A stretch of DNA of 61,503 bases, counting the filler, from Dugesia japonica (taxonomy: Eukaryota): NCBI GenBank assembly GCA_001938525.1. It is 5 parts of 5 records of this genome, joined end to end, with 100 filler letters (N's around TTAATTAATTAA, not from the genome) between each part and the next. Parts side by side here need not be neighbours in the genome. Positions count along the whole stretch, not along the records: positions 1 to 22,411 come from MQRL01633926.1; 4 more parts are not named here. The stretch is one strand, 5' to 3'. The translations under genes were made by a program, and so were the position numbers. Below the pieces are notes generated by a model that worked only from the letters and a program-made list of their open reading frames with translations, was not told the DNA's origin and ran no database searches. Of the stretch, positions 6,139 through 49,177 are shown piece after piece; the first letter of the stretch is position 1, and the number at the start of each line of letters is the position of its first letter.

Positions 6139-6149
6139 AATGTGCCGAG

Positions 6150-7452: not shown

Positions 7453-7535
7453 TGATAAAATCAATTCAAACAACAAAATAAAATTTAAACTGTCATTTAA
7501 AAATTCCTAAAAACCCAACAGGATGTTACGTCAGG

Positions 7536-7891
7536 TTAAGGACAAGAAGTCTGCTTTGATTTATTAGTCATCAACGGCTCTAAAGGCATTCTCCTTAATT
7601 CGAGGAGATCGTTGACTAGTTTATTCTCACGGTCATGAAGGGACCGGATGATCTATTTAAATGATTCTATTTGACTTTTCCACAGTCTTTTCTGTGCATG
7701 GGACGCTTCGGCTTCCTTATGAAACGCGATGCATTTATTTTTATATCGCTTGACCTTACTTTCAGCAGCGACTGTATCGGCCTCCCAACGACGTTTAGCG
7801 AGACTGTAGACATCTTATGTCATGTTTATATTCTCGCTGTTTTCTCGCACCTGTTTCGTTGGTGCATTAGAGTGATGGAGTGAGAAGTGCA
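7536..7891 (-). pseudogene. LTR ORF family D (helical, ~118 aa), begins TG directly after the acceptor
   Basis: ttctctttgtag|TG CAC.. HFSLHHSNAP..YSLAKRRWEAD..ENKLV..NKSKQTSCP; homologous to 21259-21616; two internal stops. Confidence 0.75.
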
Positions 7892-8118
7892 CTACAAAGA
7901 GAAATTAATTTAATATTACTTTTATCTACTAGAATTATTAATAGATAACAGGGTTCAAATGAAATCTATTACACGTGATCAAGAACGAGTATAGGACTAG
8001 CATATAGCCTAGTAAACTGATACATAGTTGAGAAGAAAATGAACACTCAATTCAGAATGAATGTGATTTATTAACATCAAAATAAAAGAAAATAATCAGT
8101 GAAAAACAGCAATTACAC

Positions 8119-8484
8119 TCAGATTTCATGATAAACAGAAGAGTCAGTGTTTTCCGAGCCACCTCCACTTTCCATATTCCGGACATTCCATAACGTATTA
8201 CTTATGAATTCGCTTAGCCCTGAGAAGGAAGGTAGATGAGATGTAGTAATTGGAATGATGCAAGGGCCTTCCCATCACTCACTAGGGGTACGAAAATCAG
8301 CATTATTGACTGGGTGCTCCGTTGTAGTGGTATGGTATGTTTCACGGGCTCGATTGGAGCCGGTCCAATCATAATAAGCCTGGCGCTCGGTGGCGTCCCA
8401 ATGCCTTTTTTTATGGGTTTTTGTACTGTTTAAAGATCATATTTCTGGTCCTACGGTCCAGTAACATCTCCCATTTATATTCCA
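8119..8484 (-). pseudogene. LTR ORF family A, begins TG after the acceptor; internal deletion and stops
   Basis: tttgcag|TG GAA TAT AAA TGG = (M)EYKW; WDATERQAYYDWTG..*WEGP..FISNTLW; AATAAA at 8067-8072. Confidence 0.75.
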
Positions 8485-8640
8485 CTGCAAACTATAAATA
8501 GAAATATAAGCATATAATAAGAAACAATTTGATTTGAAGAATTTATTCTACCCATAATAAAATCTGTAAGGTATGACAATGAAATTAACAGAAATAGGAT
8601 ATAAATAAATAACAATGAGATTGGTCATAGAATTTATTGT

Positions 8641-8847
8641 TTAAAAGAGAAAACAACGGTAGTACGAGGTGTCGTCCAAATCCACTGATCATGGAATAGG
8701 GTATAATTCCACGAAACATTGGAGATCCGTTTCATCCGGACGTAGGATAAGAGTTCGGGCTAAAATGTGCCCAATTAGCTGTTTCCCATGAACCCTTTTT
8801 CTCTCGTGTCGATTTAGCCTTAAGATCCTCGGTAAAATGTCGGACAT
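8641..8847 (-). pseudogene. LTR ORF family B with one internal TGA
   Basis: MSDILPRILR..KQLIGHIL..RPDETDLQCFVELYPIP*SVDLDD; AATAAA at 8633-8638. Confidence 0.75.
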
Positions 8848-10384
8848 TTACAATAATGAGTCAAAGTTCTAGTTATAATAACCTTTTAATTTCCCAGAAC
8901 CTGTATTACCATAAAAATAATACTGTTGATACTGATTTTGTAATGAGAACTGATGTAATTATTTTAACCTTCGAGGGATCAAAGAAGAAATTTATCAATT
9001 TTGGATAATGGTACCGTTTCAGGCAATAATAACAAAATCAATCACGAGTACAGATGATTTTAATAGTGATACAAACATTAATCCCCTTGACAATACTACC
9101 GTCATCATTAGGCTATCAATGGTCCTCGAGATTTTATTAATAATAATTTTGCTTAATATTTCAACCATTTTAGCTGATGAGTAACGGAAGTGGAAACACA
9201 TTTTGGTGCTTGTGCTATTATTAAAACTGATTTTAATATTAATTATCGTGCTTGTGATGGAGTAATGTCGGGAATTATAATCATAGTTTATGCCAAAAAT
9301 AGTGACACCGTTACTAGTTCCGTAATGAACTAAGAATGGTAGTTCCAATGATAACAGGTGCGGGGATAGTCACCATAAAACTAGTCACCGACATTAACTG
9401 GCCATGATAATGATAGGGAAATGGTTCCACTCCATTTTCGCAAGAAAATTTGGCGACTCAATCAATGTTACAATTGTTGCCGTCTATAATAATCCAATCA
9501 CTATTACTCACAACCATAATGATAATAAAATAACAACGCTAATAACATAATTAAAATACATAATTAAAATATTTTGATGTTAATAAATCACATTCATTCT
9601 TAATTGAGTGTTCATTTTCTTCTCAACTATGTATCAGTTAACGTGGATATCCTTTCAGTATTAATGCTACTAGTAGTTATGAGATAGTGGCAGTCACAAA
9701 ATCACCAATAATGATAATCAAACTAATCATGTCGACTCTAAAAACATGTTTTAATTGTGCCTACTCCGTGCTAAAATATATCGATGATGAGATGGCTTAG
9801 TGTAGTAATGTTGAAATAACTCCATATTATGCGGTCAACCTGAGTTACTCTGCTGAGGTGAACTTAATCATTAATGTACCAGTTATGAGCCAATATAACT
9901 AAATAAGCAGTAAATTGGAGAAAACGCTCATTTAATGAATTACACTAAGATTATTAATTTGCTACTATATGTGACTGACCAAATAAAACATAATTGAATT
10001 CTAATTGATGAGTGGGTGTGTTCATACGTGGCCTGAAATAATAAGACAGCTGTTAATCATTCATCAATCGCGAAAACTCGTGGAACTAGACATCGCAATT
10101 TTATTCAAGCGTAATGCGTTCTGATGGGCAATGTGAATTATGGCTATTATTGTCAGATTCTACACTTATAATGGTTCGATAACATCATGAATGTGATAAA
10201 TTTGACTAATATTTGGTCATCGCTTTATTCACGGAAAATGGCAGTGTATATGGCATTTAGTTACTAAAAATAGAAAACATTTTATAAATCTTTTTCAGAA
10301 ATAAATTTTATGGATTAAATAATTTATTAATTATTAACTTGAATTTCAACATATAACATACATAATTGAAAAATAAAAATTCTT

Positions 10385-10930
10385 ACTCACTATTAAAATA
10401 AAACTGAAGTAGCTGCAACGGGTTTTCTGGATAATTTCCTAGTTAGAAACAAGTATCCGAATTAAATGATATTGAGAATTGCTTCCTTGAATTTAAAAGT
10501 AAATTTTGATTAAGTTGTAGGGAGTATTACTTTATTTTTCTGTTTCCCAACTATTGTTGTGATTTCACTCGTAGATATGCCGTAAATCCGTAATTAATAT
10601 CTATGAAATTTGTGCTTGAATGGTGGCGCTCGCAATGACAATTTTAATAGTCAATTTTTTTTAAAATAGTAATAGCTGTGATAGCCAAATTTAATTCAAA
10701 ATTGAGGTAATTTCATCTAAAATTTGGTGGGTTTATATATGATTTTTCCAACCCGATTTTTTTCGTATTGCTTGCCTATTTTTGTTTCTAATTTCTTGAT
10801 TTACATTGGTTCTGGTGCCAAATTTTTGATTTTTTCTAAGAATTTTTGATCTACTATTGGTGCCTATTTTTGGAGCACCTTGTGATTCTTGTTTCTTTAT
10901 TTCACGTTTCTTTTCTGGCCTCTGATTGGC
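10385..10930 (-). promoter_or_regulatory. Promoter, leader exon and splice donor of LTR copy b
   Basis: CCAAT boxes, TATATAAA 10732-10739, CCGTTGCAG 10413-10421, exon-final A then GTGAGT 10390-10385. Confidence 0.65.
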
Positions 10931-12419
10931 CCATTCTTCAAAACATTTTATAGACCCTCCTGATAATGGTAGGGCATTCTTGTTGGAAAATTGTAACATT
11001 TCTTCTTCAAATTTTCTTTCTAGGGTCTTTTGTGATCTTCCAGTACAAAAAATGATTTTCTCTTAATTTTAATTCTTTTTCCTTAATAAATTAATTAATT
11101 TTCCATGATGATTTTTCCATTATATTTTATTACTTTTTTCTGATTTCAGGCAATAAATTATAATTATTCGCCACTGGCTTATTATAATATTCTTCTTCCA
11201 TGATTTCTTCCGGACCCTTTTCTGATTATTAATTAGTCAAATATTGATAAATTGGTGGTAGTTATATTAATCTTTCAAATCCTATTTCTTCTTGGCACCC
11301 CAATTTCGGCACCTAGAGATATTATCCTTACTATCGGGTGTTTCACCCCAACAAAACCTAACATTTCAATAATTTTTTTTTATCAAAGGTTTCCTTCGCC
11401 AATATCTTTGTGTCTTTGTACGCTATGTCAGTGTTACTCTGTTCTTTTGTCTGCAACTCAAACCCTCTTCACAGAATTATCACGTTTACGAGCAAAACTG
11501 CTCTTCGATCTACATAAACATTTATGATATTTGCTATCACCGGTTGTTTTTGATTCGGGTTAGTTCTCTCTCTTGTAGACACCATTTCGGTTTTTGCCTG
11601 AAATAAAAGCTTTTTTGTCTATACTATCTTATCTTTAATACTTGTTGTTTAGCTTTCATTTCCACTGCATACCAATCAATACCTTCCATGATAGCATTTA
11701 CTTTGAACTATTGATCTCTGAATAATCAAAGCCTTATATAAAGTTACAAACAATGATAACAATAAATTCAACACAACGAAAATATTAAAATACTTCCAGC
11801 CGTACGGAGCTTTTCATTGGTCAAATTATAACACTCATACACTCAACACAACTACGAGAGAGTTGTAGGATTTCATACTTTATGCGCATAATGAATATAT
11901 TTGCAAAATTTGCAAAATATAAAATATTTAAAAAATTATAAAATTGATTGAATATTTAAACCTTTCAGGAAAATAAATTTTCAATTTCCATAAAACTTCA
12001 AAAATTGTTTTAAATAAATGGATATGAATAATGAAGTTTTTCTTGCTAACAATAATCCGTTATTTAAATAAATTGCACATTTTTGCTTTTAATTTCTTGG
12101 CAACTTTTGCCAGTGCAACATCCAAAAGTTTTCATGTTCTTCTGCTTGTTAGACCTCTCTTTCATCTACCTTAGGTTATTAGATGCTGCCAACAAATGTT
12201 GAGATCTACGATGTATTTCCATCAAATTATCAATTTATTTCCCTAATCATTGAAGCCACTTTCATACACTAGGTTATTACACTGTGATAAACAAATCACT
12301 CGATACTTCTAAATATTCATAAATACGTAAACACTTTCAGGGACATATTTAAATAAAACAACAGTTAATAAATCCAAACCAAAATTTTCATCATTTTATT
12401 TAAATAAAAATATTTTTAC

Positions 12420-12800
12420 AATTGAAACTATTGCGAGAATAATTGTTGGACATAACCTCTGATCGTTTTACAAAATTCATTTAAAATAAAAGCTTCGATC
12501 AAAATTTTTGTTTTTTATTGATATTTGATAACAATTCGATATTTCGACTTAGTCTTCTTCAGGAATTGACTTTTCCTTAATGTTTAATTGCTGTTTCAGT
12601 AGTCTTACTCAAATATTTAGCTCATCTTTTATCTGCATTCTTATCACTTGTACTGTTTCTAGTTTCTTTTCTTGTTTTGCTATAAACTTTTCAGCGCACT
12701 GTCGTGGGATCTAATAGTTTCCTTCATCATAACTTGACAGCAATATAGAAGTTTTAGGATGGAAATATTAAGAGATCTAATAACAAAAAAAATGATCTTT
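12420..12800 (-). mobile_element. Penelope-like element 3' remnant
   Basis: Decayed ORF tail (..LLKQQLNIKEKSIP) immediately followed by a minimal hammerhead and a dispersed repeat also seen at ~31130, ~42020, ~52200 and ~60650. Confidence 0.5.
12532..12568 (-). ncRNA. Minimal type I hammerhead ribozyme
   Basis: caattc CTGAAGA a gac-taa-gtc GAAA taTC gaattg: both core boxes, stem II, and 6-bp stem I. Confidence 0.7.
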
Positions 12801-13320: not shown

Positions 13321-16300
13321 ACTATACGAAACAGGTTAAATTATCTTTTTGTTGTCTTGTTAATCGTAGTCACATGAAAGATTTTGCCAATCTCCTGTCA
13401 TTAGCGTTAACATTATATGTCCATCTGACTCGTTTGCTACAAAATTTACTTCACGTTTTTTATTTACAGTACCTCTACTGCTACAAGCGGGGCATCTTTT
13501 CAGTATTGGAAAATAATCTTCAGTTCATGACCACCCGAGTTCCGAATTTACAAAGTCTTGTGTTTTCCAAATACATTAGAGTGGGTACTCCTAATAAATG
13601 TATGGTACATGGTTGATTTATCGCATGGATCCAAAGATTCGATGTCCGAGTTTCCTTCTTTATGTCTGGAAACACATTAAATAAGCTAGCCATTTGCCGA
13701 CTGTTAATAGTTGAGAGGTACATCATTCTCTAGGAGCTTTAAAAACTTGAATTGATTCGAGATTTCTATTATTTTATAATTCTGTTAATACTTAATTTCC
13801 GAAAAGAAATTTTTTTCGATTTGCCCATAAGTGTATTTGCCGAGATCTCTGATTTTGACAACAGACTCTGATTTGTTTGATTCTACTTTGTGGTATTTGA
13901 TAAATAAGTTGTTAGCCATTTCTGAAAATAAAATAATTAATTTTTTATCACATATCATGATATGTCAATCTTGGAAAATTCTATCTTGCATAAATCTAAT
14001 ACTTAGATTTTCTATGGTAATTAGTTTGAGTATAAATATAGATATGATAAATAAATATATACTACTTTTAAATTTAATTTAGGAGCGGCTTATTCATGCT
14101 TCCATTTTATTTACGTTTTCTGAGATGAAGCTAAGTCGCAAGTTTTTAAACTTGTATTGTGCTCAAAGCTATACGACAATCACACTCATAAAGCTAATTG
14201 CTGCTATCAGTAATGTTATCATCAACTGCATGCGTCTTTGTATTTTATCCTCTGTTTTTAACTGTAGTATTGAGCTAAGGTCACCATCGGAAATACTTTA
14301 TCATTGATAATGTTATTCTGATATGATTTAATTTTATTCTAGAAATCCGCATTTAGTCGTCTTAGAATAGGTTTCTTCTCTGTTGGAGTACTTGTAGTTG
14401 TACTAGTTATCTAACTAACTGTAGCACTGCTAGACATTGCTCTTTTTGTAGTTATTTTCGAATCTAATTTCCTTCTTTTAGAAAACACTATATATTGACT
14501 GAATATTTTCTCTGGTTGCCAATAATAATAAACATTTATTGCAGTAATTAACCCTTTACCCTAACTTTCAACGGGGAATCTCTAATTTAAACAAATTACT
14601 TGATTTAGTAGTATGTTTGATAACTCATCTGTTACTAGCTTATCCAAATTCACAGGTAATCCATGATTTTGCTGAGGTATATTCATTTCTTTCTCCTAGA
14701 CTACTTGTGCTTCTTAATTCTGTTGATTTAAATCATCAGTTACTTCTATCGCTATCAAAAGTATTAAGTTGACTTGGTGGTCAATAGATTATTATTACAC
14801 TGATATCTTCTGATTTTGCTGTTGGAAAGGAAAATTATCTAATACTCCATAACAAGCTATCCACATACTACTTTCAAAAGGAACTTCTCGATTTATTTGG
14901 AGAATATTAAAGTAAAATTATCGTTGAATCAGTCGGGATTAATTTTTAGTTAAAGAAGGAATCAGAGAAAGGAATTTATTATCCCTATCGATGTGAACCC
15001 GTATTTATTAGCAGAAAAACGAAAGAAAACCGTTGCAGAAACCCCGCATCTTGATATAGAAAGTAATTATGTTGTTATTATTTTATGTATTAAGAAATAT
15101 TAAATTCGATAATAAATGTCTTTATTCTAATTTATTATATGTTTAATATTATTATTTTTACTTAATAGGTACATAAAATAAGCAATGATTTTAAAAAACA
15201 ACTTTTATTTAAAAAAAAAATAAAATTATTTTTGCATTACCCATTTATGACAAATTCAAATGTTCCCGATCATCTTTTGTTTCATCATAAAGAATTGACA
15301 TATACAAAGATAAAATCCATCCAATAAGTTCCCAGAAAAGTCAATAGCATGATCATCATAAGATGGAATCATCAGGAAAATAACAGTTGTGTAAGTAGGT
15401 ATGTTGGTAATATTGTCAGTAACTGAGTCACTAGAGTCTTCACATTTTAGCGGTGTGTATATAAAAAAAAGAAATCGGTGGATTTGCTAGCAACACTGAT
15501 ATGATCTATTCCATTTCTTCATGAATGATACTTACTGTAGTACACACACACTTGCGACTTACACATTCATGATGATGACTAGTCAACTTCTTAGTAATAC
15601 TATCAGTAACTTGTTATGTCAGAGTTGTGGGTTTACCCCAGTGTGTATGGATTTTTCTGTTAACCGATCCGAATCTGATCAATTATTGAGATATCGTTGG
15701 TAATGATATGTGTAACGGAATATTTTGTTGCATGGGTAGTCACAGTTCTGACGGTTACGGTAACATTCACCACTGCCATGCTAGATCATAGATACCTCAC
15801 ATTACTCATTTCATTAACTTTAAAATTGAATCTTCCTATTGATAATAACATTGAATAATTACTAATTCTAACTCCATCATTCAGATTACTATTGTTAATA
15901 GCATATTTAAAGCGGGGACTCATAACTTAATGTTTTCTTAATCGGATGTAGACTGTGAATGTTTTCTTCTTTACACTATGGATTCCCCCTTTTCTTTCCC
16001 AACAGTTGATAAGAGACTTATGAATGTCACTAATTAATCACTACAGTCGTTATTGCCACACGAATTTATATTATTATTATACGAAAGTTAAAATATTCAT
16101 GACTTGGAATGTTTTAATTTTAATATTAATTCTATTATAAATTTTATTAATCATAAAATTCCGGTTACTATGATTGACATAGGTTTTTTTTCATTAATAG
16201 GTTGGGATAAGCCCCTTTTGGGCTGATATTACTATTAAGGGTCGATTCAATGTAAGGATAGCTTACCCTCTCTAGCACCCCGTCAGTTTTTTGATATTTA

Positions 16301-16364
16301 AAAAATTCGCGTTATTATGCTAATACTGAATTTATATTTTTTAGAAACTGAATTCTCCACACTA

Positions 16365-16549
16365 ATGAATGACATTTTAATAAAAACTCTTCTGTTGATC
16401 AAAAGAGAACGAGAGCGGTCTCGTAAGAAACAGTTAATCGGGCAAATTTTGGCTCCCACTCTAATCTTACATCTGAATTAAACGGATCTCTAGTGTTTTG
16501 AGGAGTTGTATCCTCTACCCTGGACGTGGATTTAGATAAGGAAATCTGA
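16365..16549 (+). pseudogene. LTR ORF family B
   Basis: MNDILIKTLLLIKRERERSRKKQLIGQIL..TDL*CFEELYPLPW..VDLDKEI; stops and a frameshift. Confidence 0.75.
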
Positions 16550-16583
16550 TGTTTGGTTTTGAATATATAATTTTATGATCAAG

Positions 16584-16832
16584 TCGCAACGAAATCGCTA
16601 AATTAAAAATCTTGACATCATCGTCCAAAAACCGGGAGATCTGGCAGAGCAGACAAAACAGTTACTCGCCCATAAGGTTGAATTCCTCGAGCAATACATT
16701 GCTGACCTTTCTAGTTGACTCGAGCAAGAAACATGGACTCACTGGAATAGCAAGGATGATGAAGCCATTTTTGGTTTCATGTCAGTAAAGCCAACCCAGT
16801 GGTTAGATCGGGGTGCTCTAAACTTCATGTAA
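16584..16832 (+). pseudogene. LTR ORF family C, 3' part
   Basis: LDIIVQK..QYIADLSS*LEQETWTHWNSKDDEAIFGF..PTQWLDRGALNFM; AATAAA at 16841. Confidence 0.75.
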
Positions 16833-17073
16833 TTGAAAAGAAATAAATCTTCATGATAATTTATTATTAACTTGCTTGTTTAAATTAGAATATAGGGAAA
16901 ATAATCAACCCGAATTAAAGGTATACGAGTGAGCACTCCAAGTAAGCGGTGGGAGTCAACCGCTCTATGCCGATAATCTAATTAGGGACATTAGATAAAT
17001 TCTTGAAAGGGTTCCCTGAGGGCTGTTTTTCCCCAGCCACATTCTTTCTCAATCCAAACTCAGATGGGACCCC

Positions 17074-17128
<55 letters not shown>
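17074..17128 (+). repeat. (AAT)n microsatellite between two LTR copies
   Basis: Pure AAT run into an N gap. Confidence 0.95.
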
Positions 17129-17728
17129 NNNNNNNNNNNNNNNNNNNNNNNNNNNNNNNNNNNNNNNNNNNNNNNNNNNNNNNNNNNNNNNNNNNNNNNN
17201 NNNNNNNNNNNNNNNNNNNNNNNNNNNNNNNNNNNNNNNNNNNNNNNNNNNNNNNGGGTGAAACACCCGTTAAAAAAGGAAAATAAGGCCAAAGGCCCAA
17301 ATCAGCAAAGAAGAACAGCAGGGCCATTACATTTACCAATAATGGAATTCAAAAGGAAAAGCAATTAAGATCTGGGGTAGGATATAACGAAAATAATCAT
17401 TAGAAAAGAATAAAATAAAATTGGAGATGGATATGAAGAACCGGGTGAATAAAACTAGCATTCATCAAAGATGGGAATTAAAAGGTATTATTAAATTAAT
17501 AATAAAAGTCAAGAAAATCATTATGGGAAAATAATTAATTAACAGAAAAATATTAACTAATTCTGAAATACAACGAAGTAAAATTAGTCAAAAATCCGTT
17601 TTATACGAATAATTCTGCTCAGGAAAATAGCAGAGGCTTTTATTAAGAAAAACTGAAAAGGAAAAGTACCCGAGCATTAGGATTTTGCAACCAGAAAATT
17701 ATATCACCATTAGGAGGGGGTCTGCAAA

Positions 17729-18256
17729 GATTGGGCCAATAAGGTGTTAAGAAAAGAAAATGTAACAAAGACCCGATCATCACATGTTGATTTAAAAATA
17801 GAGGCCAATAGAAGTCCAAGAAAGCCATGAAAAATCTGAAAAATCAACACTAGAACCAATGAAAAGAAAGAAATTCGAATTAAAAATAGTAACCAATGAC
17901 AATGATGCCGAGTTGCATCAGAAAATCGTATATAAACCTCCAAAATTTTAGATGAATTACCTCAAAAAAAATTTGTGTGTAATCTGTTAGTTAATACAAC
18001 GATATACTATAAACTCAAGAAAAACAATTTTTGGAGAGAACACTTTTGACCATTGTTATCACGATTAAAGTGTAAGGCAGAATTATACTTCAATTAATTT
18101 ACTAATTTGAATTTACCCCAAAATTATAGTAGACGAATACTCTAGTGGTAAAAGAAGAAAGTATAATAGGAAGACAGAAATTCACGTGTATTCAGGCCAG
18201 AAAGGAATCCCACCATTATCTAACCGTTGCAGAAAAAAATTTAAGAAAGAGTGAGT
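17729..18256 (+). promoter_or_regulatory. Promoter, leader exon and splice donor of LTR copy c
   Basis: Several CCAAT boxes, TATATAAA 17929-17936, CCGTTGCAG 18224-18232, A(18250)|GTGAGT. Confidence 0.65.
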
Positions 18257-20294
18257 AATAATTTCTATTTTCAATTTGGTGTAATATATGAAGAAATGTG
18301 TTAATAAGATTCAATAAATAATTTGCTATAATTTAACTTTCGTTTAATGATTTGTAAAATGCTAAAGAAAAAAAAAATATTTTTTTTCCAGACAACATTT
18401 AGATACCGCATGCCAGACCGCCGTCGGTGATCATACGATCAATAATGATAACACCAAAATTTTGACGATATCATGAAGCTATGCTGCATGTAAGAAAGCA
18501 AAAACAAATTGTCTGATAATAGCCGTTAAAATTGCTCATAGAAATTCTCTGGATCCGAGCGTAATGTCTACTTTCCTCACGTTAGACGAAAATCAATTAA
18601 ATAACAACTGGCACACTCTCTTTATAGTCGTGGATATGGCAACATCACAATCCAGATACACTTAGGTTTCTCACACACACGCGTAAGCAATCAAGATTGA
18701 TCATTGTAAACTTAATGCAACCGCTCAGCAAAAGTGTGTGTCCTGACCTGGGCAGAGGAATTACCATATGTTCTCAGATATTTTTTGCCAATATCACGTT
18801 ATCGTCGTATTTTCTTGTTTAGTTGGATATGATTTAACTGTTACGAATGACAGATGTAGAAACTCTCAGTTATCAGTATTAACTAATCATGTGACTGTTT
18901 TAATTACCGCTAAAAGTGTCAATCTATTATCAGTCTTATCTTCAACCTATAGATGACAATCGAGAACGGTCTGAAAAACATTGTTAATTTTATCAGACAC
19001 TCGTTCCGTCACTTCATCAGAAATGTAACTGTTAGGGTCATCACAGCTTGTTGATAAAATGCATCAGACGTTGGTAAGAATATAAATCTCGACATGATGA
19101 TTCGCAAATCACACGATATCGACTGTTAATCACGCCATGAAATCATTGTTATTATTATCTTGAATCGCTGTTAGTCCTCAACGTTAGTGATAACGTAAAT
19201 AGTCAAAATTAATGTCCTTACCACAAATTTGCTATTATAAATCATGGTCATAAGTGTTATAGGTATTATTATTCTTCTGACCATTATTAATTACCATTAT
19301 TATTGTTGTCTCATTGATTCAATTATTAAAAGTTCCCTCAATAATATATAGTTATCATGATTATTATCTCATAATGTTATCGGTATTAATATTGTTATTA
19401 TCGTATTATCATTATTATTACTAGTATTATTAACATTATTATTATCAATATTATTATTATTATTATTNNNNNNNNNNNNNNNNNNNNNNNNNNNNNNNNN
19501 NNNNNNNNNNNNNNNNNNNNNNNNNNNNNNNNNNNNNNNNNNNNNNNNNNNNNNNNNNNNNNNNNNNNNNNNNNNNNNNNNNNNNNNNNNNNNNNNNNNN
19601 NNNNNNNNNNNNNNNNNNNNNNNNNNNNNNNNNNNNNNNNNNNNNNNNNNNNNNNNNNNNNNNNNNNNNNNNNNNNNNNNNNNNNNNNNNNNNNNNNNNT
19701 CCTAGCGTCATTATTATTATTACTATTCGTGTCATCATTATTATTATGGTTCCTATTAGCGTTATTATTATCAACATCCTTAAAATTATTAATATTATTC
19801 GTATTATTATTGCTATTATTATTAATATGCCCATTATTATTATCACCCTTCTTAGTATATTATCATTATAATGCGTAGTGTTACTATTATTATTTCTTTA
19901 CGGTTATAGTTATTATGGTTATAATCATTGATACTATTAATATTAATTTTCTTATTAGCCTGGTGCATGGAGTTAGTAGGTTAATGTTATCGACCTTAAC
20001 GTTAGAGTTCCCTCATTACTACTGATAATGTTGATACTATCATTGTAAGTAGTANNNNNNNNNNGTTAAATGATATTGTAAATAATTCTATGGTTTTACT
20101 AGCGTTAGTCACCTCACTTTTAACTCCATGACTACATGCTCCTGATTCCACGGACAGAGCTAATAGAAATACACCTAGATCTCGCCCATATTTTAATAAC
20201 GAGAGATGTCATCAGTGGTAACCACTTCATTTAAGACGGTTCAGGAGAACTGAATCATGAATTTAATTTATAAATATTTGTTTTACTCTAGTTG

Positions 20295-20477
20295 ATGCCG
20301 GCAGTATTACGAGACACTCTTCGTCTAATAAGGAAGCAACGTCAAACTACTCGCCTGAAGCAGTTGATAGCACACTATTTAACGAGTGGTAAAGTTGAAC
20401 ATTCCTACAAGACTGATCTCCAGTGTTTCGTTGAGATGTTCCTACTCGAATATAAAGTGGACATGGATGAGGAATAA
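20295..20477 (+). CDS. LTR ORF family B, intact 60 aa
   Basis: MPAVLRDTLRLIRKQRQ..KQLIAH..TDLQCFVE..VDMDEE; acceptor at 20290-20291; stop overlaps AATAAA. Confidence 0.75.
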   Translation: MPAVLRDTLRLIRKQRQTTRLKQLIAHYLTSGKVEHSYKTDLQCFVEMFLLEYKVDMDEE

Positions 20478-20681
20478 AAGATCGGTCTTATTTATTTGCG
20501 GATACTTCGCATGAAATAAACCTTAATTAATGTGTTTGATTATGTGCAATTCTTATAAAATAAACCCTAAATATTGTTTTAATTGCGAATAATTCTTATG
20601 AAATCTATAAAATATTATTATTTTATAGATTGTAGTCTTTAAAAAAAACCTTACCAGTTATCATTCTAGGATCAGCATCAA

Positions 20682-21110
20682 ATGGAATATAAGTGAGAAG
20701 TAAACCTTGATATCCATTCAGGTAGAACGGTGTTTAAAAGGTATCAAAACCCGTATAATCACGACGCCGGAGTGCTGGTAGATCACTCCAACCTCTCTAC
20801 TGAACAAATGACAGACGAAAGGCGATGGGATGCGACTGAGAGAAGCGTTTATTACAGCTGGTGTGGTCCTAGAAGAGACAGAGTCGCGTTTCCCCCGGCT
20901 CCACTTTCTTTCGAGAGATCGGCTGAAGTACCGCAGATAGAGCGTATGTGGCATGATGGGCCTTCATTAGTCGGCATCACCACGAACCGCTTACCCTCAA
21001 CTTCCCAACTAACTTCTTTCGTCCAGAATTATTTATGGAGTGCTCAAAATGAAGCGTCTAGTAATAATGACGAAAATACCAAAGAAGAAATTTCGGAAGC
21101 TTCGGTGTAA
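20682..21110 (+). pseudogene. LTR ORF family A with W5>TGA
   Basis: MEYK*EVNLD..FKRYQNPYNHDAGVLVD..; acceptor at 20668-20669; AATAAA at 21124. Confidence 0.8.
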
Positions 21111-21258
21111 AGCTGTTGAATAGAATAAATATTTAATTAGGTGTTTGCGTTATCTGACTCGTTGTTACTGTTGTTAGCTATAAACCCAGTCTGTCTTCAT
21201 TTATTAAAATATAAATCTACTAATATCCTGTCCTTCTTTATTTGTATTTGTATTTCAG

Positions 21259-21616
21259 CGCATTTATCCTTGAATAGATCTCATGCCCCGAATAAAAAAT
21301 TACGTGAAACCAGTGAGGGCATAGAGCTCACGTGGGATTTGTATCGGCTCGCTAAGCGGGGTGGAAAGCCGAGACTTCAGCAGCGGAAGCTAAAGTTAAT
21401 CGCTATAATCGGAAATGTTTAACGTTTAAATCCGAAGTAGACGCGACTCAGAACCAAGAGAGGGTTTGGAAGTTGCAAGTCTAAACCTTCACCGAAATAA
21501 TCAAGTCTTATCAGGAGTGTGAAAATAAACTAATGGAAAATATATTGAAATTGAGGACAGCCATACCTTTGACCCCACTCTTGATAGACAAAGGTACCCA
21601 GACTAGCCGTTCCTGA
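21259..21616 (+). pseudogene. LTR ORF family D, ends DKGTQTSRS
   Basis: tatttcag|CG CAT..; YRLAKR/WKAETSAAEAKV..ENKLM..; one frameshift, one stop; AATAAA at 21646. Confidence 0.75.
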
Positions 21617-21735
21617 GTTTTCGTGTTTAAATTTTTATTAACCCTAATAAATTGTTTACTATTTGTATTTTTTCTAATCTACTTCTCCGATTTTAGTTAT
21701 GGAGGTTGTCTACGTGAACTATAATTTTTCTTTAG

Positions 21736-22118
21736 TGCCTTGAATTGTATTCCCGACTAGTTTGCGGAGATATCACCGGATCATGCGCCGTCTGTTGCTG
21801 GAACGTCACCTAAAGCGTAAAGCAGACCGGGCCTTTCTTAAACATCTGGCCCGGTGAGACCAATTAATAAAAAAGTTGGATTTGATAGTTAAGAAACAAA
21901 ATGAGTTGGCGGCCCAAACAAAGGCCCTTGAAGCAGAAACAAAACAACTGCTACACAGAAAGAGATATTTTCTAAAACAATATATAGCGGACCTTTCTTG
22001 CCAGATTGGTAATCCAGCTTGGGTTCAATGGAACGACGATGATGATGTCGCGGCGTTCAATTTTTTGACCACCGACCCAGACCAGTGGTTAGACCAAGGT
22101 GCTTTGGATCTCATCTAA
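21736..22118 (+). pseudogene. LTR ORF family C, begins TG after the acceptor
   Basis: tttttctttag|TG CCT..FPTSL..LLLERHLKR..LIKKLDLIVKKQ..QYIADL..WVQWNDDDD..DQWLDQGAL; two TGA at Arg positions; AATAAA at 22130. Confidence 0.8.
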
Positions 22119-22208
22119 TTTTCAATTAAAATAAAGTTTTATTGTTCAATTCGTTTTAATCTTTGATAAAGCCGTGTGAATAGTGAAAAGAGTGAACCCA
22201 AATTCAAA

Positions 22209-22366
22209 GGCCTATGGATGCGCACCTCCTATCAAGAGAGAGGTCAACCTCCATAGACTGAATACCTAACCTAGGGGCGTTAGGTTAAATTCTTGAAAGG
22301 GTCCCCTGAGGGCTGTTTTTCCCCAGCCACCTTTTTCTTCATTTCGACTCAGGTAAAACCCCAACA
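22209..22366 (+). other. Conserved multi-hairpin domain at the LTR 3' end (also 16920-17077, 4410-4567 minus, partial 30725-30762)
   Basis: Compensatory base changes between copies in three stems. Confidence 0.7.
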
Positions 22367-22455
22367 ATAATAATAACAAAAATAATAATAATAATAATAA
22401 CAATAATAACANNNNNNNNNNNNNNNNNNNNNNNNNNNNNNNNNNNNNNNNNNNN

Positions 22456-22574: not shown

Positions 22575-22616
22575 TTATTATTAATTTTTTTATTAATATC
22601 ATTAAAATAGTTGTAT

Positions 22617-24651: not shown

Positions 24652-26040
24652 GTGAATGGACATAGTGGTTGCCAGTTAACTATGACTGCGTTAAATCAAA
24701 CATGGGTTAATCACACTACCAAGTATTGTTGGATAACTCGGAAGGAAATGAAACTAACATTCGCGGGATTAATGGTAGAAGTCCTGGAATCGGCACTCAG
24801 TCGAGCAGGATATCAATGCTTAACAGATAAATTTGTATGCACTCTCAGCGCTCTAGTGAATTTTAAGGCCAGAAAAAGCTATTTATACGATTTTGGGCTA
24901 AAACCAGGAGAGGAAATTGAACTCATAATATTCGATAAACACCCTGGTATAGATTATGATGTGTGGGTAACGAAAACCGGGAGATCAGCTCTAGAAATCA
25001 TGGAAGAATAGGTAAATCCTATTAAAATTAAGATACTCTCCATAGTATTAAGAAAGAAAGACCATCTGACAAAGCAGNNNNNNNNNNNNNNNNNNNNNNN
25101 NNNNNNNNNNNNNNNNNNNNNNNNNNNNNNNNNNNNNNNNNNNNNNNNNNNNNNNNNNNNNNNNNNNNNNNNNNNNNNNNNNNNNNNNNNNNNNNNNNNN
25201 NNNNNNNNNNNNNNNNNNACAAAGTACAAGCTGAGAAAGAAAAGTTACCCCGAGAAACTTATTGGATTATAATGAATAGAATTTACGACATATACGATGA
25301 GATTTAAATACCGGAAGAAATCGAAGATCAATAGCTCACAATTAGACAGAAATATGCAGTAATTTACCTGTACAAAAGTAAGGCCATAGATGCTGAATTT
25401 TAATCCAATCCTAAACATTGTTATTATGAGATAGAGATTATCCATAACAATGAGAAACGTTATGTAAAACCAATTACTCGAAAAATATCACCACTAGTGT
25501 ATAAACCGAATATCATAAACTGCTCCAATGTATTTGGACCTCAATATGTAATGTCAGACGGGTCGTGGATAAAATTCCGTCAACGAATGGTAGTGGGGGT
25601 TGAGCCCCGGAAATTCTCAATGTTACAATTAAACGGAGGAATTCAATTCACCCCAATTGATGTAAACAAAAGAGGTATTTACTGCAAGAAAAAGCCAGGG
25701 AATATATGTTATTTCCCGTCTGAAGAATGCAGATTTTGTCAAATATAGTGCAATTAACCAGTGGAACAAACATAGACGGACGTTTTAATTATGATGCACT
25801 ATTGTCAGCCGATCATTTCTAGAAAGCTACCGAAAATGTCATGCGGAAAATGCGGGGAAGATTCATAATATTTCGTCAAGCTATGGCAGGGTTGTTAGGA
25901 GTTATGTTAATAATTTTAGTAACACGAGTGGTGATTACGCAGTTGTTTGCTTGTTTCGAAATCTACAAGAGAGAACAGAAAGTGAATTGGAAAATGATAA
26001 CTGGATTATTTCCATTTTTAGNCAAAATTATGTTGCTCAA
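24652..26040 (+). pseudogene. env-like class III fusion glycoprotein remnant (chuvirus-G / herpes-gB type)
   Basis: 25350-25683: VIYLYK..HCYYEIEIIHNNEKRYVKPITRKI..IINCSNVFGPQYVMSDGSW..GIY, then TM block FIIFRQAMAGLLGVMLIILV..WKMITGLF. Recognised by eye only. Confidence 0.65.
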
Positions 26041-26643
26041 CAGCCACTCAAAGTATTTCGACAGAGATAAACGTTTCATTTACAAACTCGGACAAATAAG
26101 AAGATTGAATAAGAAGGTTGTAATGCAACTCCGGTTGTTGTGTGAGGAAATGAGCAATAGTAAAAAGAAAATATCATATTTCAACCAATTTAAGGAAAGG
26201 TTTAAGAATAAAAGTGAAAGTAGTAGTAGTAGCGATGATGTCAGGAGGAGAGCAGTGGAATGCCACATGCACCAAGTTATAAAACCGCCATGGAGTATGA
26301 TGCAGAAATTTAAAAACAGCAATATATAAAAACCAGTAAAATGTAACGATTGAAAAATGCACTGAGATTTGGAGGAAATGAAAATACACCAGCACCTGCA
26401 CAGATGTATTATAACGCATATCCGCAGCATGGTTGGCAACCCATGAATCAACAGCCACAACAAGTACGGGCACAAGGTCCAATGTACAACGATCCTTATA
26501 TGAGGTCACCACAAGCACCTAGTATGGCATTGTTAACATAAAGTAACCTATCAGCTATTGACAGAAGAATTACTGACAAAAATTTGCGTTCTCCAAATAA
26601 CCAAATTACTAGCGATGACAAACTGGAAACTCAAACCGTATGT

Positions 26644-28800
26644 ATGATGATCTCCCAAGGATAAAAGTGAACGGAAGATGGGTTATAGCCATCATTGAAA
26701 CGGGAGCAAGTATGACTCTAATTCAGAAGAGAATATTAGAAGAATACAGATTTTTCAGAATAAAAATTACTAAAGGAGTTATCATTACTACATTTGGAGA
26801 ATAAATATCACCATTAGGAGAAACAATCTGTGAAATGGATAGCAATAGAATCTGACTATGGCATAAAATGCAGATAATGAATGAACCTCCAAATTGTGTG
26901 CTCAAAATACAACAGTTTTTAGGCCTCGCAAACTACTATCTTAAATTCATCAAGGATTTCGCAATAATCGCGAAATCTTTGCAAGAGTTGGTCAAGCAAG
27001 ATACCGTATTCATTTGGGGACCCGAAGAACAGCAATCCTTTGAAACATTACGCGATAAATTAATTACCGCACAAATTCTGATTCATTTGGATTTCAAAAA
27101 ACCATTTATACTAGCTACAGATGCTAATGGATTTACAATGGGAGCAGTACTGAGTCAATTGGACGAACAAAGGAGAGAAAGGGGGATTGCTTATTTTAGA
27201 AAAAAAATCTAAGGAGCAGAACTAACTAAATAAACTAAATTACAGTACAACGGAACGGGAGATCATGGCAATTGTGAAGGCCACCAAGCATTTTTGATCA
27301 CTTATACATGGTCATGAAGTCTTAATATAAACCGATCACCTTCCTATCTCATTTATGACCCAAAAGCCGTTACTTTGGAATAGAATGGCTAAATGGCAAT
27401 GCAGGATTATTGAACACTATTGAAATTCAAAAATGATAAAGCAAATTCAAATGCCGACTGTCTATCAAGAATTGGCTGACACGAGGAGCCCGAAAATTCC
27501 ACGAATGACTCAGAAACGTTCACTTTACGAGAATTACTTGAAAAGAAAGTAGGAATGGTTTATTTTATATTAGCCGAGGATCAAAATTTTGATGTGTTAA
27601 AACAAGCGCAAGCAACTGACGAATAAATAAAGATCATTACGAAATATATGGAAGATTACAACCTAGAGAAACTGGAATGCGAACCTAGGATGAAGGAGCA
27701 TTTCACGCCTTCACTAAAAACTGGTTAACAGCTCAGGATGGTAAAATACTGTGGTCGTTATCCCAAAATCCAGTCGGGACAAATTATTGGGAAAATATCA
27801 CAATGGAGTGTTGGGAAGACATGTCTCAAAAGAAAACATAGTCGAAATTAAGGCAGAAATATTACTGGCCACACATGACAGAATCAATAAAGGAATGAAT
27901 TGCCAAATGTCAAATATGCGCTGCCAGAAAAGTAACAGAAAAACGAGTAAAAGCAATATTAAAGCCAATCGCTGTTCTCGCGGCACCTATGGAAATAATA
28001 GCTATGGATGTAGTCGGACAATTACCGCCAACACTGAGTGGAAACATATATTAATATATATATACTAACAATCATGGACTACTTGTCAAAATTTCCTGAT
28101 GCATTTCCGATTAAGAATCAAAAAGCAACCACTATCGTAGATATACTGGTACAAAAAGTTTTCAGTAGATATGGTACACCAAAGAAAATCGTAACTGATA
28201 AAGGAAAGAATTTCATGAGCAACATATTAGCAGAAATATTGATCTTCCTCAAAATACACCAATTTAGAACATCACCTTATCATCCACAAACAGATGGGCT
28301 AACGGAACGTTTCAATAAAACATTGATTAATATGTTATCTAGTTATGCACAAAAGTAACAGAATAACTGGGATATACACAGCCCTCAACATGGAAATGTC
28401 CATCCATCAACAAAGTATACTCCATTTGGACTTATGTATGGTAGATAATGCAACATGCCAATTAATTTGGCATTTCAACCGCCTATAACTCATATTAAGA
28501 TAAAACAGACTTCGCTGCCAATTTCAAAGAAACCATGCAGAAAATATGGAAACAAGCCAAGGAAAATGTAGGGTTTTACCAAGAAAGTTACAAAGATTTG
28601 CATGATAAAACAGCAGCTCAACATGCATTCAAGAAAGGTGACATTGTATTAATCAATTTACCGGATATTTGTGTTGGTACTACGTCAAAGTAAGCCCGTG
28701 GCAAGGTCCATATGAAGTAATTGAAGTAACCAAAACTAACCTCCAAGTTCGGAAAAAAGGAACTTATTAGAGAAACCTAAAATTTATCACGCCAATCTGT
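26644..28800 (+). pseudogene. Ty3/gypsy pol remnant: protease, RT thumb/RNase H, integrase with GPY/F motif (RT core deleted)
   Basis: AIIETGAS; QFLGLANYY..TDANGFTMGAVLSQ; NYSTTERE; YYWPHM..CQIC; MDVVG..TDKGKNF..YHPQTDGLTERFN; WQGPYEV. Confidence 0.92.
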
Positions 28801-29711
28801 GTAAACAGACAGCCGTGACAGATGAAATTACNNNNNNNNNNNNNNNNNNNNNNNNNNNNNNNNNNNNNNNNNNNNNNNNNNNNNNNNNNNNNNNNNNNNN
28901 NNNNNNNNNNNNNNNNNNNNNNNNNNNNNNNNNNNNNNNNNNNNNNNNNNNNNNNNNNNNNNNNNNNNNNNNNNNNNNNNNNNNNNNNNNNNGCTAATTA
29001 AGTCAGCGGGTTAAGGCATTGGGTACTACAACACTGTACCCTATAATACCACAAGGAACACATATGCCAGTAGCAGAAAATAGCTGTGCTCACTTCTCAC
29101 AATTAACATTAAAACAGAATTATAGAAGATAACTAGATTTTTGAAAAATGGTGTTTTTAAAATATGCCGACAAACAAAGGAAGGCCAAGAAAGTAAAGGA
29201 TAGTCAGATTTTGAATCAGTATACTCATACCAAAGCCGAAAAGAAAAACATAGAAGCCAAGGAAAACACTAAAACACTAAATACCTCCTTATCTACCAAG
29301 GAACTAAAGCACTCGAGTAAAATATGCATACTTAAAATAACAAATACACCAAATAATAATCATCCTCTTTAATCACAACAGACTATATCTATAACTAATA
29401 ATAGATCAATTATTGAACTACAAAATATTAAAACGTTATTTTTTAGTTCAGATAATAAAATGCATCGATCACTTATAATCGAAGCCATGAAGTATCCTCT
29501 ATCCAATCATGTGCCAAAGAAACCAAACACCAAGGCATGAAGAAATATGTATCCATATTATACGAATAACATGTCCNNNNTCCGCAATACAACTGGAGGA
29601 GAGTTGTCTTCAATGCATCAAGAAAACACAAATTATATTTAAAAATGCACTAAAGGCCATTTACGATCAACCAGCATGGGTGTCCAGACCAGAAAATTGG
29701 TTTAGAAAAGA

Positions 29712-30419
29712 TTGGATGGATCGCGAATTAAAGCACCAATTCAAGCACCTATTCATCAATCTATCATTAAAAAATTATATCTGCCATGCACAGATATCTA
29801 CAGTGATGAATTATTAGCGTCCATTCACGTTTTTCACAGTGCATTGGTACAATGGAACTGGGTAAGAGTTTATGAACCTCCAAATGTCCAATTACTATGG
29901 GGAATGGTTGGACCACCCATTCACATAAAGTACGAATTAAAAGATGTAGCTGAATTACACATAAAATCAGATAAACTAACCCCCAGAGAATCGGTGTCAG
30001 ACAATATCGAGAATACTAGCAAAGAAATACAACAGTTTATGAAAATAATGGAAAAGTCATTTAGTGGCCAAGTGAATCAAATGGAAGAGGAAGAGAAACA
30101 ATTAGCTAGCGTAGCCTTAGGAGGGATGGAAAGGATGAAAATGACAATAATATATGATGAGATAGATCAAGCAGAGAAAGAAAAACCAGAAAATGAGATA
30201 TCACAGAAAAACACGAGTATAATTACAATGGAAGTAATAATTATAATGGCTTTGTTATTATGGGCAATAATCAACAGTTGGTATTATGGCATATTAATTT
30301 GGTTGACCATGAAACTAGACAAAAATATGGGAAAAGGATACCCAACATCAATCGTAATTTATGGAGTCGTGGGAATAATCTTACTATGGCTAGCATTACC
30401 AGCACTGGCAACTCATTAA
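29712..30419 (+). CDS. Unknown post-integrase ORF remnant with two C-terminal hydrophobic segments
   Basis: 235 open codons downstream of IN on the same strand; truncated at the junction with an LTR fragment. Confidence 0.5.
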   Translation: MDGSRIKAPIQAPIHQSIIKKLYLPCTDIYSDELLASIHVFHSALVQWNWVRVYEPPNVQLLWGMVGPPIHIKYELKDVAELHIKSDKLTPRESVSDNIENTSKEIQQFMKIMEKSFSGQVNQMEEEEKQLASVALGGMERMKMTIIYDEIDQAEKEKPENEISQKNTSIITMEVIIIMALLLWAIINSWYYGILIWLTMKLDKNMGKGYPTSIVIYGVVGIILLWLALPALATH

Positions 30420-30420
30420 A

Positions 30421-30762
30421 TACAACCTGGCGGCACAGACAAAAGCCTTATAGAATGAAAATAAATTGTTATTGCAAAGAAAAATAGATTTCCTCTAGCA
30501 ATACATACCCGACCTCTCTCGTCAGTTAGGTAACCCCACCTGGATCCAATGGGACGACAACGACGATGTTGCCGCCTTCAGTCTTTCCATAACTGATCCA
30601 GACCAGTGGTTAGACCCTGGCGTGTTATATGAGTTATAAATATTATATTAATAAATGTTTTCGCGTATCGTTAGTTGAATTTTATGTGTAACTTAAGGGA
30701 AAATAGTAAACCCAAATAAAAAAACCTATGGGCACGCACCTCCCATTAAGAGAGAGGTCTAC
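30421..30762 (+). mobile_element. 3' fragment of giant LTR (family C tail, polyA signal, start of hairpin domain)
   Basis: NLAAQTKAL..QYIPDLSRQLGNPTWIQWDDNDDVAAF..DQWLDPG (stop 30639), then ACCTC..GAGGT stem. Confidence 0.8.
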
Positions 30763-30945
30763 CACAGTAGGATGATAGTGGCACACCCGCCCACTTGCAT
30801 AGCGCTGGGCGGAACCCCCCCGGGGGGGACTCGGAAACACATTACGCTTGTGCTATGATTTTTGGGCTGGTTATTTTTTTTCTAAGATTTTTGGGATCAA
30901 AAAATTTTTGATCGGATCAAATTTTTTTTTGATCGGATCAGTTTT
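30763..30945 (+). mobile_element. Terminus of a different element interrupting the LTR end
   Basis: LTR homology stops at CACAGTAGG; GC-rich hairpins follow, then GATC-spaced subterminal repeats. Confidence 0.45.
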
Positions 30946-32406
30946 NNNNNNNNNNNNNNNNNNNNNNNNNNNNNNNNNNNNNNNNNNNNTTAATTAATTA
31001 ANNNNNNNNNNNNNNNNNNNNNNNNNNNNNNNNNNNNNNNNNNNNTTTGAATTAAAATTTTAAAACTCACGCATTGTTGACTTATCTTGGCCAAATCCCC
31101 CAAGGTATCTCAACAAAATGAATTATATAAAACGATCTATGGTTATGTCCAAAAATTATTCTCGCAATAATTGCAATTCTAAAATAAATGATGAACTTAA
31201 TAAATCTTGATAAAATAAACGATGGAACCTTCATAAACTAATACTGAAAGAAGTAAAGCAAACGTTAATAATTGATGAGCCAAATGAAGCTTTATCAGAA
31301 AATAATAAAAGGAATAAAACCACATAGCATAAATGCTGAAAGAAATATTTAAAAATTGTATAATGAAAGCAATATAACTTTAAAATATCCCTGTATTGAA
31401 TAAAAGTGGAAGGAATAAAATTTTGCAAACTAACAGATTGAATAATACACTTCGAGTGATTAAAATACAAATAATAAATCTTTCCTAACCAAAATGGAAA
31501 GAAAGAAAAGCTATTAAATAAAGATAATAATAATGAGTTTTATTTAAATATAAAAATATATATATAATAAGATTATTATATATATACTTATACATATATA
31601 TAATAAGATTATTATATATATAATACAATTAAACGGTTTTGACTATATAAAATAAAAATAGAACATTTGAGATTTATTATGATCAATTTTTTTTAAAAAA
31701 AAAATGAATGAATTAAGACATTTGCAAGGTAAAAAGGCTCAGCTTTATTTTCTCGTGTGTGTGGCATTGGCTTGTTTTTGGATGTGTTGAGAGTTTTTAA
31801 ATTGCCATGTTGGGTTGTTATGCGGTGCGGTTCTTCACGAGTTTGTAAAAATGAATGAAATCAGAAATTAATAACCGCTGTATTTTACATTTTTAACAAG
31901 AAAATTGAATAAATAAATGGAGCAGCGGATTAGAGTGATAATAATACATCAGATATCATAATTCGTCATAGATGTTAATTTGAATTTAAATTTATAAACA
32001 GATTAGTGGGTTGCGTACTTTTTATTTATTTACTTATTAATTAATTAATTATTTGTTTATTTTGTTTGGCGACGATGAAATGTTATTTATATTAAGCGAT
32101 AAGATCCTGCACAACAATTAAGTTAATCATCAAAACGTTCTCTGATAATTTCTAAAGTAAGAATAAAATGGCCGAGTTACAATGTGACTCAACAGAAATC
32201 ACAAAATCTTAAGACGGACTAACACTCTGGTCCGCTGGACCCGAACCACAGGGCGGTTACAGGATTCTCACAGAAGATAGTCACCGGAACCAAACCGAGA
32301 GCAGATAGGGGAGATCAGACGTAAAATGCTTGTGGTTTACACGAGCATGCCCCTATAGTAGAACTAAACATCAATAGGTTGTGGAAACCCAACTATATTA
32401 TTATTA

Positions 32407-32932
32407 GTTGATTTTCAGCAATATTAATATCATTTGATACTTGGCAATACTAATATTAATTGATACCTGGTAATACTAATATTAGTTGATACTCGGCAAT
32501 ACTAATATTAGTTGATACTTGGTAATACTAATATTAGATGATACTTGGCAATACTAATATTAGTTGATACTCGGCAATACTAATATTAGTTGATACTCGG
32601 CAATACTAATATTAGTTGATACTTGGTAATACTAATATTAGTTGATACCTGGTAATACTAATATTAGTTGATACTTGGCAATACTAATATTAGTTGATAC
32701 CTGGTAATACTAACATTAGTTGATACTTGGCAATACTAATATTAGTTGATACCTGGTAATACTAATATTAGTTGATACTTGGTAATACTAATATTAGTTG
32801 ATACTTGGCAATACTAATATTAGTTGATACTTGGCAATATTAATATTAGTTGATACTTGGCAATATTAATATTAGTTGATACTCGGCAATATTAAAATTA
32901 ATATAAGTTGATCCCCAGCAATATTAATATTA
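32407..32932 (+). repeat. 26-bp minisatellite, ~20 units (TAATATTAGTTGATACYYGGYAATAC)
   Basis: Contiguous tandem units; related degenerate units at ~43945-44000. Confidence 0.95.

Positions 32933-49121: not shown

Positions 49122-49177
<56 letters not shown>

Follow-up and report, generated by a model that had tools for sequence, protein, structure and literature searches.

Predicted splice-built start codons in a four-gene repeat unit of Dugesia japonica, likely the long terminal repeat of a Burro-like Gypsy element

The window considered here, i.e., the whole stretch of 61,503 nt (filler included) from the Dugesia japonica assembly GCA_001938525.1, is composed of several AT-rich eukaryotic scaffolds joined by N runs. 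Due to this construction, with the linker TTAATTAATTAA at positions 22456, 30990, 39345, and 48873, adjacency across 22456 is not genomic. A unit of ~5 kb occurs in the window in four diverged copies and one tail fragment, about 60-72% identical in a self-comparison of the window, and is likely the long terminal repeat (LTR) of a Burro-like Gypsy element. Behind a predicted promoter and leader exon it carries four small open reading frames (ORFs), termed B, A, D, and C, of which D and C probably receive the A of their start codons from the leader exon by splicing. The order B-A-D-C is retained across copies that are ~60% identical in DNA.

The unit termini are TG...CA with short inverted ends of only 9 nt. 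The unit start TGTTGGGGT was observed at 4224, 11353, and 22574 (all minus strand), and the unit end ACCCCAACA at 4410 (minus) and 22366 (plus). Copy 4 (17256-22366, plus strand, ~5.1 kb) has lost its first bases in an N gap, ends in ACCCCAACA and has an AAT microsatellite on both sides. Copy 2 (4410-11353, minus) has both ends, is interrupted at ~5200-7500 and is damaged in every ORF. Copy 1 (1-4224, minus) is cut by the window edge, and the partial copy 3 (15030-17077, plus) has a deletion running into the middle of C but keeps its 3' end. The tail fragment (30427-30775, plus), consisting of the second half of C and the following sequence, is located on another scaffold downstream of an env-pol remnant. 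Where it ceases to match the unit, a GC-rich hairpin-like stretch (30790-30845) is followed by short repeated motifs. A target-site duplication of 4-5 bp was sought; the flanks of copy 2 read GTTT and GTTC (one mismatch), and those of copy 4 are AAT repeats with the 5' end inside the N gap. Three unit ends adjoin an AAT microsatellite in the same orientation (17074-17128, 22367-22411, and 22575-22590), and contigs of public runs join the unit start to ATT-rich sequence; an insertion preference for (AAT)n is possible. Near the 3' end of the unit, a block of ~50 nt (22286-22335 and 16996-17045) is far more conserved than the remainder, with summed depths in the thousands around 17013 and 22301; a similar stretch at 49032-49215 is largely N and AAT repeat. 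Copy 2 also contains an internal duplication of 81 nt (8004-8084 and 9570-9650, 94% identity).

In copy 4, the predicted promoter (17736-17935, plus) comprises CCAAT boxes at 17736, 17805, 17856, and 17893 and a TATATAA box at 17929. It precedes a predicted leader exon (17960-18250, plus), the start of which we place ~30 nt after the TATA box; this exon is ATG-free, contains CCGTTGCAG at 18224-18232 and ends in an A before GTGAGT. In copies 1, 2, and 4, CCAAT boxes (three or four per copy) and one TATA box (3632 in copy 1, 10739 in copy 2) occupy corresponding positions 321-360 nt ahead of the donor, and in all three complete unit starts the CCAAT and TATA sequences, taken as motifs only, are situated ~600-680 nt from the 5' end of the unit. 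Exact matches to CCGTTGCAG are found four times in the window, one per copy (3337 and 10421, minus; 15030 and 18224, plus), 18-57 nt from the donor in each case. With one mismatch allowed, eight matches were obtained versus 2.79 +/- 1.57 expected, a number reached by none of 100 shuffles. The initial annotation had described a conserved motif followed by a donor whose last exonic base is A (18250|GTGAGT, 10391|GTGAGT, 15062|GTAATT, and 3272|GTAATT), and all of these coordinates were confirmed in four out of four copies. Because A also occupies position -1 in 59 of the 169 donor-like hexamers of the window and the four copies are homologous, the A alone is weak evidence. Counting back from the donor, the nearest ATG is 479, 326, and 299 nt away in copies 1, 2, and 4, respectively. 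An ATG-free distance of at least 290 nt occurs at 0.8% of window positions, and at least 280 nt at four of the 169 donor-like sites, three of which are the donors of these copies. An AUG-free first exon suits a scanning ribosome if the first AUG comes after, or at, the splice junction.

CCGTTGCAG may resemble a Myb-type site. Its use as a splice acceptor was set aside, as no pyrimidine tract lies ahead of the motif. In copy 1, about three diverged units of 144 nt (2840-3275, minus) extend from the leader donor on, so that the start of the intron is tandemly duplicated. Acceptor-like sites followed by an ATG are present shortly after the leader donor at 18392, 10262 (minus), and 15240. These may represent further, more decayed ORFs; tblastx comparison among the three candidates revealed no homology.

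All four ORFs of copy 4 are located on the plus strand. ORF B (20295-20477, 60 amino acids) has an ordinary ATG behind the acceptor AG at 20290-20291 and AATAAA signals at 20473 and 20515. ORF A (20682-21110, 142 codons) likewise starts with an ordinary ATG behind the acceptor AG at 20668-20669, has AATAAA at 21124 and a premature stop at codon 5. ORF D (21259-21616) begins without an ATG directly after the acceptor AG at 21257-21258, with AATAAA at 21646, and is broken by a frameshift near 21359 and an internal stop. ORF C (21736-22118), with a coiled-coil-like middle, starts with AG|TG (AG at 21734-21735), has AATAAA at 22130 and contains two premature stops, at 21741 and near 21855, which its relatives in public runs do not share. 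In copy 2, B starts at 8847 (ATG), A at 8484 (AG|TG, ambiguous as discussed below), D at 7891 (AG|TG), and C at 5017 (AA|TG). Copy 1 contains B (1463-1281), A (1074-670), and A' (477-61), all with ordinary ATGs and open frames, and in copy 3, in which the motif lies at 15030 and the donor at 15062, B starts with an ATG at 16365. ORF A is thus tandemly duplicated in copy 1 (61-477 and 670-1074, minus; 28% amino acid identity), each duplicate with its own acceptor and ATG, which indicates that the gene array can gain genes.

Judged from their sequence, B, A, D, and C are genes. Comparing ORF pairs between copies, differences at codon positions 1, 2, and 3 amount to 225, 156, and 351 over 546 aligned codons (8 of 10 pairs, two misframed pairs being dropped). 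The first 32 codons of D show 11, 5, and 21 differences and the first 55 aligned codons of C 18, 12, and 37; this third-position excess implies that selection reaches the codons right after AG|TG. The statement that the ORFs sit behind acceptors and that nearly all possess their own AATAAA also held: of the 12 ORF copies examined, 10 have the signal no more than 100 nt from their end (placed by eye for B of copy 2), and in copy 4 (17256-22366) all four ORFs have it no more than 28 nt away, compared with a chance expectation of 11-12% of positions. Exceptions are D of copy 2 and A' of copy 1, the latter 60 nt from the window edge.

Relatives of the four proteins are scarce. None of the four reached the Pfam cut-off with any family, protein searches with A and with C gave nothing at near lengths, and ESM Atlas no usable match for A. 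A three-sequence profile of A retrieved one protein among 1.84 billion representatives (P0002, E 1e-19), which comprises 94 amino acids, starts with M and stems from a single 512-nt ENA contig. No related loci were found in the metagenome or viral contigs searched. The AlphaFold model of A is unusable at a confidence (pLDDT) of 37.

The junctions singled out by the initial annotation, namely AG|TG at 21736, 8484, and 7891 and one-base departures at 21259 (AG|CG) and 5017-5016 (AA|TG), are all present. As background, TG follows 8 of the 150 acceptor-like sites of the window. D thus starts as AG|TG at 7891 and AG|CG at 21259, and C as AG|TG at 21736 and AA|TG at 5017; the beginning of C is missing from copy 3 and from the tail fragment. 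The acceptors of D and C have pyrimidine tracts of 13-16 out of 20 positions and YAG, as do those of B and A. Among the window copies, no conserved in-frame ATG occurs near the start of D, and the in-frame ATG at codon 17 of C in copy 4 is absent from copy 2. In case of A at 8484, a second good acceptor is located 7 nt upstream, which renders this AG|TG ambiguous; in the other three copies of A the ATG follows the acceptor by 9-12 nt. Relatives of 8484 are barely covered in the public runs, and decay of an ordinary ATG is probably the simpler reading of this site.

That the AG|TG starts might merely be decayed ATGs, which had been named as a way to overturn the proposal, was examined with contigs of three public runs aligned to 21190-21800 at 80% likeness (67, 781, and 52 records), representing many related copies. 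At 21259, the AG|TG form accounts for 2351.5 of 2357.9 of the depth in run X6 (37 contigs), 360.7 of 360.7 in X2 (9 contigs), and 46 of 46 in X4 (12 contigs). With relatives at near 100% AG|TG, AG|CG is private to copy 4, and decay from ATG is refuted for D. Among the best 40 of 92 variant rows, no majority change was observed at 21256-21258 or 21733-21737. In X6, the C acceptor has a summed depth of ~3000, and position 21741, five bases further along, is represented by 62 contigs; for C, ATG decay is therefore unlikely. Depth climbs steeply at each acceptor, which indicates that conservation begins there.

Taken together, D and C probably obtain the A of their start codons from the shared leader exon by splicing, the transcription of the unit and the pairing of the leader donor with the acceptors of D and C being predicted from DNA. 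Several observations weigh against this view. As a general rule for the array it does not apply, since ORF B has a contiguous ATG in four of four copies and ORF A an ordinary ATG in three of four (A' of copy 1 counted). C of copy 2, with AA|TG, has a contiguous ATG and no acceptor, and all D and C copies in the window are broken. In copy 3, an ATG lies 72 nt before the donor and no matching promoter cluster upstream; this copy looks truncated on its 5' side. The result for C is deduced from a row missing among the best 40 of 92. Finally, no leader junction appeared in 15 of 55 joints or, for the D-C region, in 4 joints together with 18 of 169 loose ends. Of the claim that start codons are assembled by splicing, the part concerning D is supported at the DNA level by its family-wide AG|TG and that concerning C less directly, and A drops out as a rule.

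The silence of the RNA data has to be seen in relation to coverage. None of the listed runs that carry the sequence is recorded as RNA. Runs X1, X2, and X4 bear the label "RNA?"; their contigs also extend over introns and the upstream region, however, and these runs were handled as DNA-like. In two oligo-dT runs (X8 and X11) the leader of copy 4 and its ORFs B, A, and D are covered to a depth of at most ~0.1, and a third RNA run (X7) yields 0 reads on D-C. The loose ends shown upstream of acceptors begin in intron or pyrimidine-rich sequence, as in DNA. Due to this near-zero RNA coverage, the absence of junctions neither supports nor refutes splicing. According to PMC8532177, PIWI silences such elements in planarians, which would explain the low coverage.

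Concerning the carrier, a decayed Burro-like internal region with many stops and frameshifts (25404-28760, plus) lies on the scaffold next to that of copy 4. Its order is pieces of a Monjiviricetes-type fusion glycoprotein, a protease-like motif (read by eye), reverse transcriptase-RNase H, and integrase. The glycoprotein pieces (PF24664, 25404-26326) match with E values of 4e-9 and 9e-5, i.e., 35 and 21 bits at a cut-off of 27, and precede RT_RNaseH and rve on the same strand; gag is not in the window. The integrase is followed by a decayed ORF at 29000-30416 (plus) that has no Pfam match, shows two hydrophobic segments towards its end, and continues without a gap into the C fragment. According to PMC6431247, an env located before protease, reverse transcriptase, and integrase and encoding a mononegavirus-like glycoprotein is unique to planarian Burro elements. 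This env-before-pol order together with the same-strand unit fragment (30427-30775) following the Burro-like pol makes a Burro-like LTR element the likely carrier. The promoter near the 5' end and the poly(A) signal AATAAA at 22130, 236 nt before the 3' end, correspond to a U3-R-U5 order. On these features, an LTR of a Burro-like, env-bearing Gypsy element is the likely identity of the unit. Burro/GYPSM1 elements as presented there share the fusion glycoprotein before protease-reverse transcriptase-RNase H-integrase, multi-kb terminal repeats, and accessory ORFs; in contrast, the review excerpt describes no genes within the LTR, and the unit is likened to Burro by architecture, not by sequence. 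Burro/GYPSM1 elements also have a giant ORF1 with BIR, BCL2, MATH, and dUTPase domains and exceed 30 kb in length; the corresponding upstream part is outside the window.

Even with splicing correctly predicted, the unit could be a non-autonomous element in its own right, mobilised by an integrase of the Gypsy or Ginger type, and not an LTR; this would affect the carrier only. No paired unit copies around gag-pol are found in the window, no TGG-type primer binding site follows the three unit ends seen, the inverted ends comprise only 9 nt, and the sole link to pol is a deleted fragment. Primer sites are absent from solo LTRs anyway, however, the TG...CA ends, the 5' promoter, and the position of the last poly(A) signal suit an LTR, the same-strand fragment does follow the Burro-like pol, and Burro LTRs measure several kb by the sizes given in PMC6431247. 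We regard a self-standing element as unlikely.

With regard to the start codons themselves, the main competing view is that D and C are the last exons of longer proteins, with an upstream coding exon supplying one base (N|TG). A phase-1 intron explains AG|TG equally well, and copy 4 has phase-1 donor-like sites within B (20389), A (20944), and D (21313); none of these three sites, however, holds phase in other window copies. Moreover, every ORF ends in a separate stop and in most cases has a separate AATAAA, fixation of TG close to 100% would be unnecessary for an internal codon, and the leader itself is without ATG, all of which makes longer proteins improbable. A little less probable still is a start of D and C at the in-frame near-cognate GUG spelled by AG|TG, on unspliced or separately started RNAs. 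GTG is found exactly at codon 1, where C of copy 2 has a true ATG. Yet such a start would not need the pyrimidine tracts and YAG that have been kept, many upstream ATGs would precede it on unspliced RNA, and a further CCAAT/TATA cluster ahead of D or C did not come to notice, with no dedicated search made. GUG initiation is weak in animals.

The array might also be an operon resolved by spliced-leader trans-splicing, with poly(A) sites ~90-150 nt before the next acceptor. The spacing fits, as the AATAAA signals at 20515, 21124, and 21646 precede the acceptors at 20669, 21258, and 21735, and both trans-splicing and operons are described in flatworms (PMC12582326). According to PMC9851317, however, the flatworm spliced leader ends in AUG; with this AUG ahead of TG, D and C would be out of frame, and neither has a conserved ATG near its start. 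The leader AUG would be in frame and open in only two of six A/B copies with clear acceptor and ATG, and trans-splicing leaves the ATG-free exon and the conserved donor unexplained; we therefore rejected this very improbable alternative. Least of all, with a probability close to nil, AG|TG would be the decay of ordinary ATGs in dead copies and the donors chance hexamers, since against the broken D and C copies of the window, and probably 8484, stand the D junction in 58 contigs of three runs at near 100% of the depth, its recurrence in two lineages ~60% identical, and the ATG-free leaders.

If D and C indeed take their start-codon A from the leader, transcription would begin ~30 nt after the TATA box and run ~300 nt free of AUG, with a first exon ending in A. 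Splicing would connect the leader donor with one of the four acceptors further along, and cleavage at the AATAAA that follows the selected ORF would yield a separate short mRNA for each gene. Translation would start in B and A at an ordinary ATG 2-20 nt inside their own exon, and in D and C at an A|UG formed at the splice junction, so that the D and C proteins would be made only from correctly spliced RNA. The initial annotation had described a virus-like cassette in which translation is gated by splicing. At the DNA level this agrees with the ATG-free leader behind CCAAT and TATA boxes, the conserved acceptors and poly(A) signals, and coding-type divergence from codon 2. Its further suggestion that unspliced RNA carries fewer upstream AUGs was not borne out, as the 4165 readable bases between the predicted start site and the unit end still contain 70 ATGs. 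A more likely benefit of the split start would be that D and C protein arises only from its own spliced mRNA. A genome-length RNA would have to pass four poly(A) signals in the 5' LTR, for which donor-linked suppression or skipping to the last exon is possible.

Tentatively, and with slightly more doubt than conviction, this can be extended: the R region as a whole may act as an adenovirus-like unit, in which an AUG-free leader is spliced to at least four terminal exons, each encoding a new protein family, D and C being strictly splice-dependent and the start codon changing between an intact and a split form from lineage to lineage (A at 8484). In that case, each solo LTR would amount to a mobile cassette of several genes, and the choice of splice site would switch between accessory-protein and genome-length RNA. 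By analogy with complex retroviruses, the unit ORFs might perhaps encode accessory proteins expressed from any LTR, solo LTRs included.

The adenovirus major late unit and complex retroviruses likewise use a single promoter and a single leader, which is joined to numerous acceptors. Adenovirus has several poly(A) sites, and MMTV (mouse mammary tumour virus) sag, HIV (human immunodeficiency virus) nef, and foamy virus accessory genes reach into U3. The genes of the unit differ from these in being situated downstream of the repeat's TATA box, in the predicted R region and not in U3, and the likeness is one of layout, not of sequence. Splice-built start codons have precedent in errantiviruses: in Drosophila gypsy, splicing builds the env start from AT and G (PMC2585583), and junction mapping shows a splice-built env start in the springer subclade (bioRxiv 10.1101/2023.08.03.551782). 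The unit resembles these Gypsy-type elements in that the start codon would be composed from a leader piece and the ORF exon. In gypsy, the split is AU|G and concerns one gene, env, inside the element, whereas here A|UG is predicted from DNA for two of four small genes that lie downstream of a promoter within a terminal repeat and have their own poly(A) signals. Members of the MDG1 group (412, Mdg1, Blood, and Stalker) share small accessory ORFs at the 5' end and alternative polyadenylation leading to a short transcript; their sORF1 and sORF2 differ in being unspliced and two in number, with sORF2 a membrane protein (PMC11952523). The flatworm spliced-leader AUG is similar in that a splicing event supplies the start codon in a flatworm, and different in that a whole AUG is supplied, which would be out of frame for D and C (PMC9851317).

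In the parts of the literature that were searched, no spliced multi-gene array and no A|UG starts in a planarian LTR were found; Grohme et al. 2018 and its supplements, which lay outside this search, may bear on the point. The precedent for a splice-built start caps the surprise, and new here would be the different phase, its use in two of four novel genes, and the placement within the R region predicted for what is likely an LTR. LTRs are regarded as control regions that encode nothing, and solo LTRs as debris. In the present case, a many-copy repeat family keeps four small proteins under selection inside what is likely a terminal repeat, together with putative promoter and poly(A) signals. 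Genes with an A|TG start are invisible to ORF finders, and such accessory genes would thus be missed in annotation. The four uncharacterised protein families may show how giant planarian elements control themselves or the host.

Apart from the unit, a short AT-rich repeat resembling a miniature inverted-repeat transposable element occurs at 12367-12585, 31117, 39129, 42044, 52241, and 60616, with summed depths of 22,000-84,000. A 26-bp tandem array of about 27 units is located at 32291-33004, and an exon of the host OLA1/YchF GTPase gene at 46862-47599 (plus). Out of seven solved structures, the human chain is the nearest to this exon, and a host search with OLA1 listed no entry at E 1e-120. 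DUF7041 and reverse transcriptase fragments at 55789-57286 (minus) belong to another retrotransposon.

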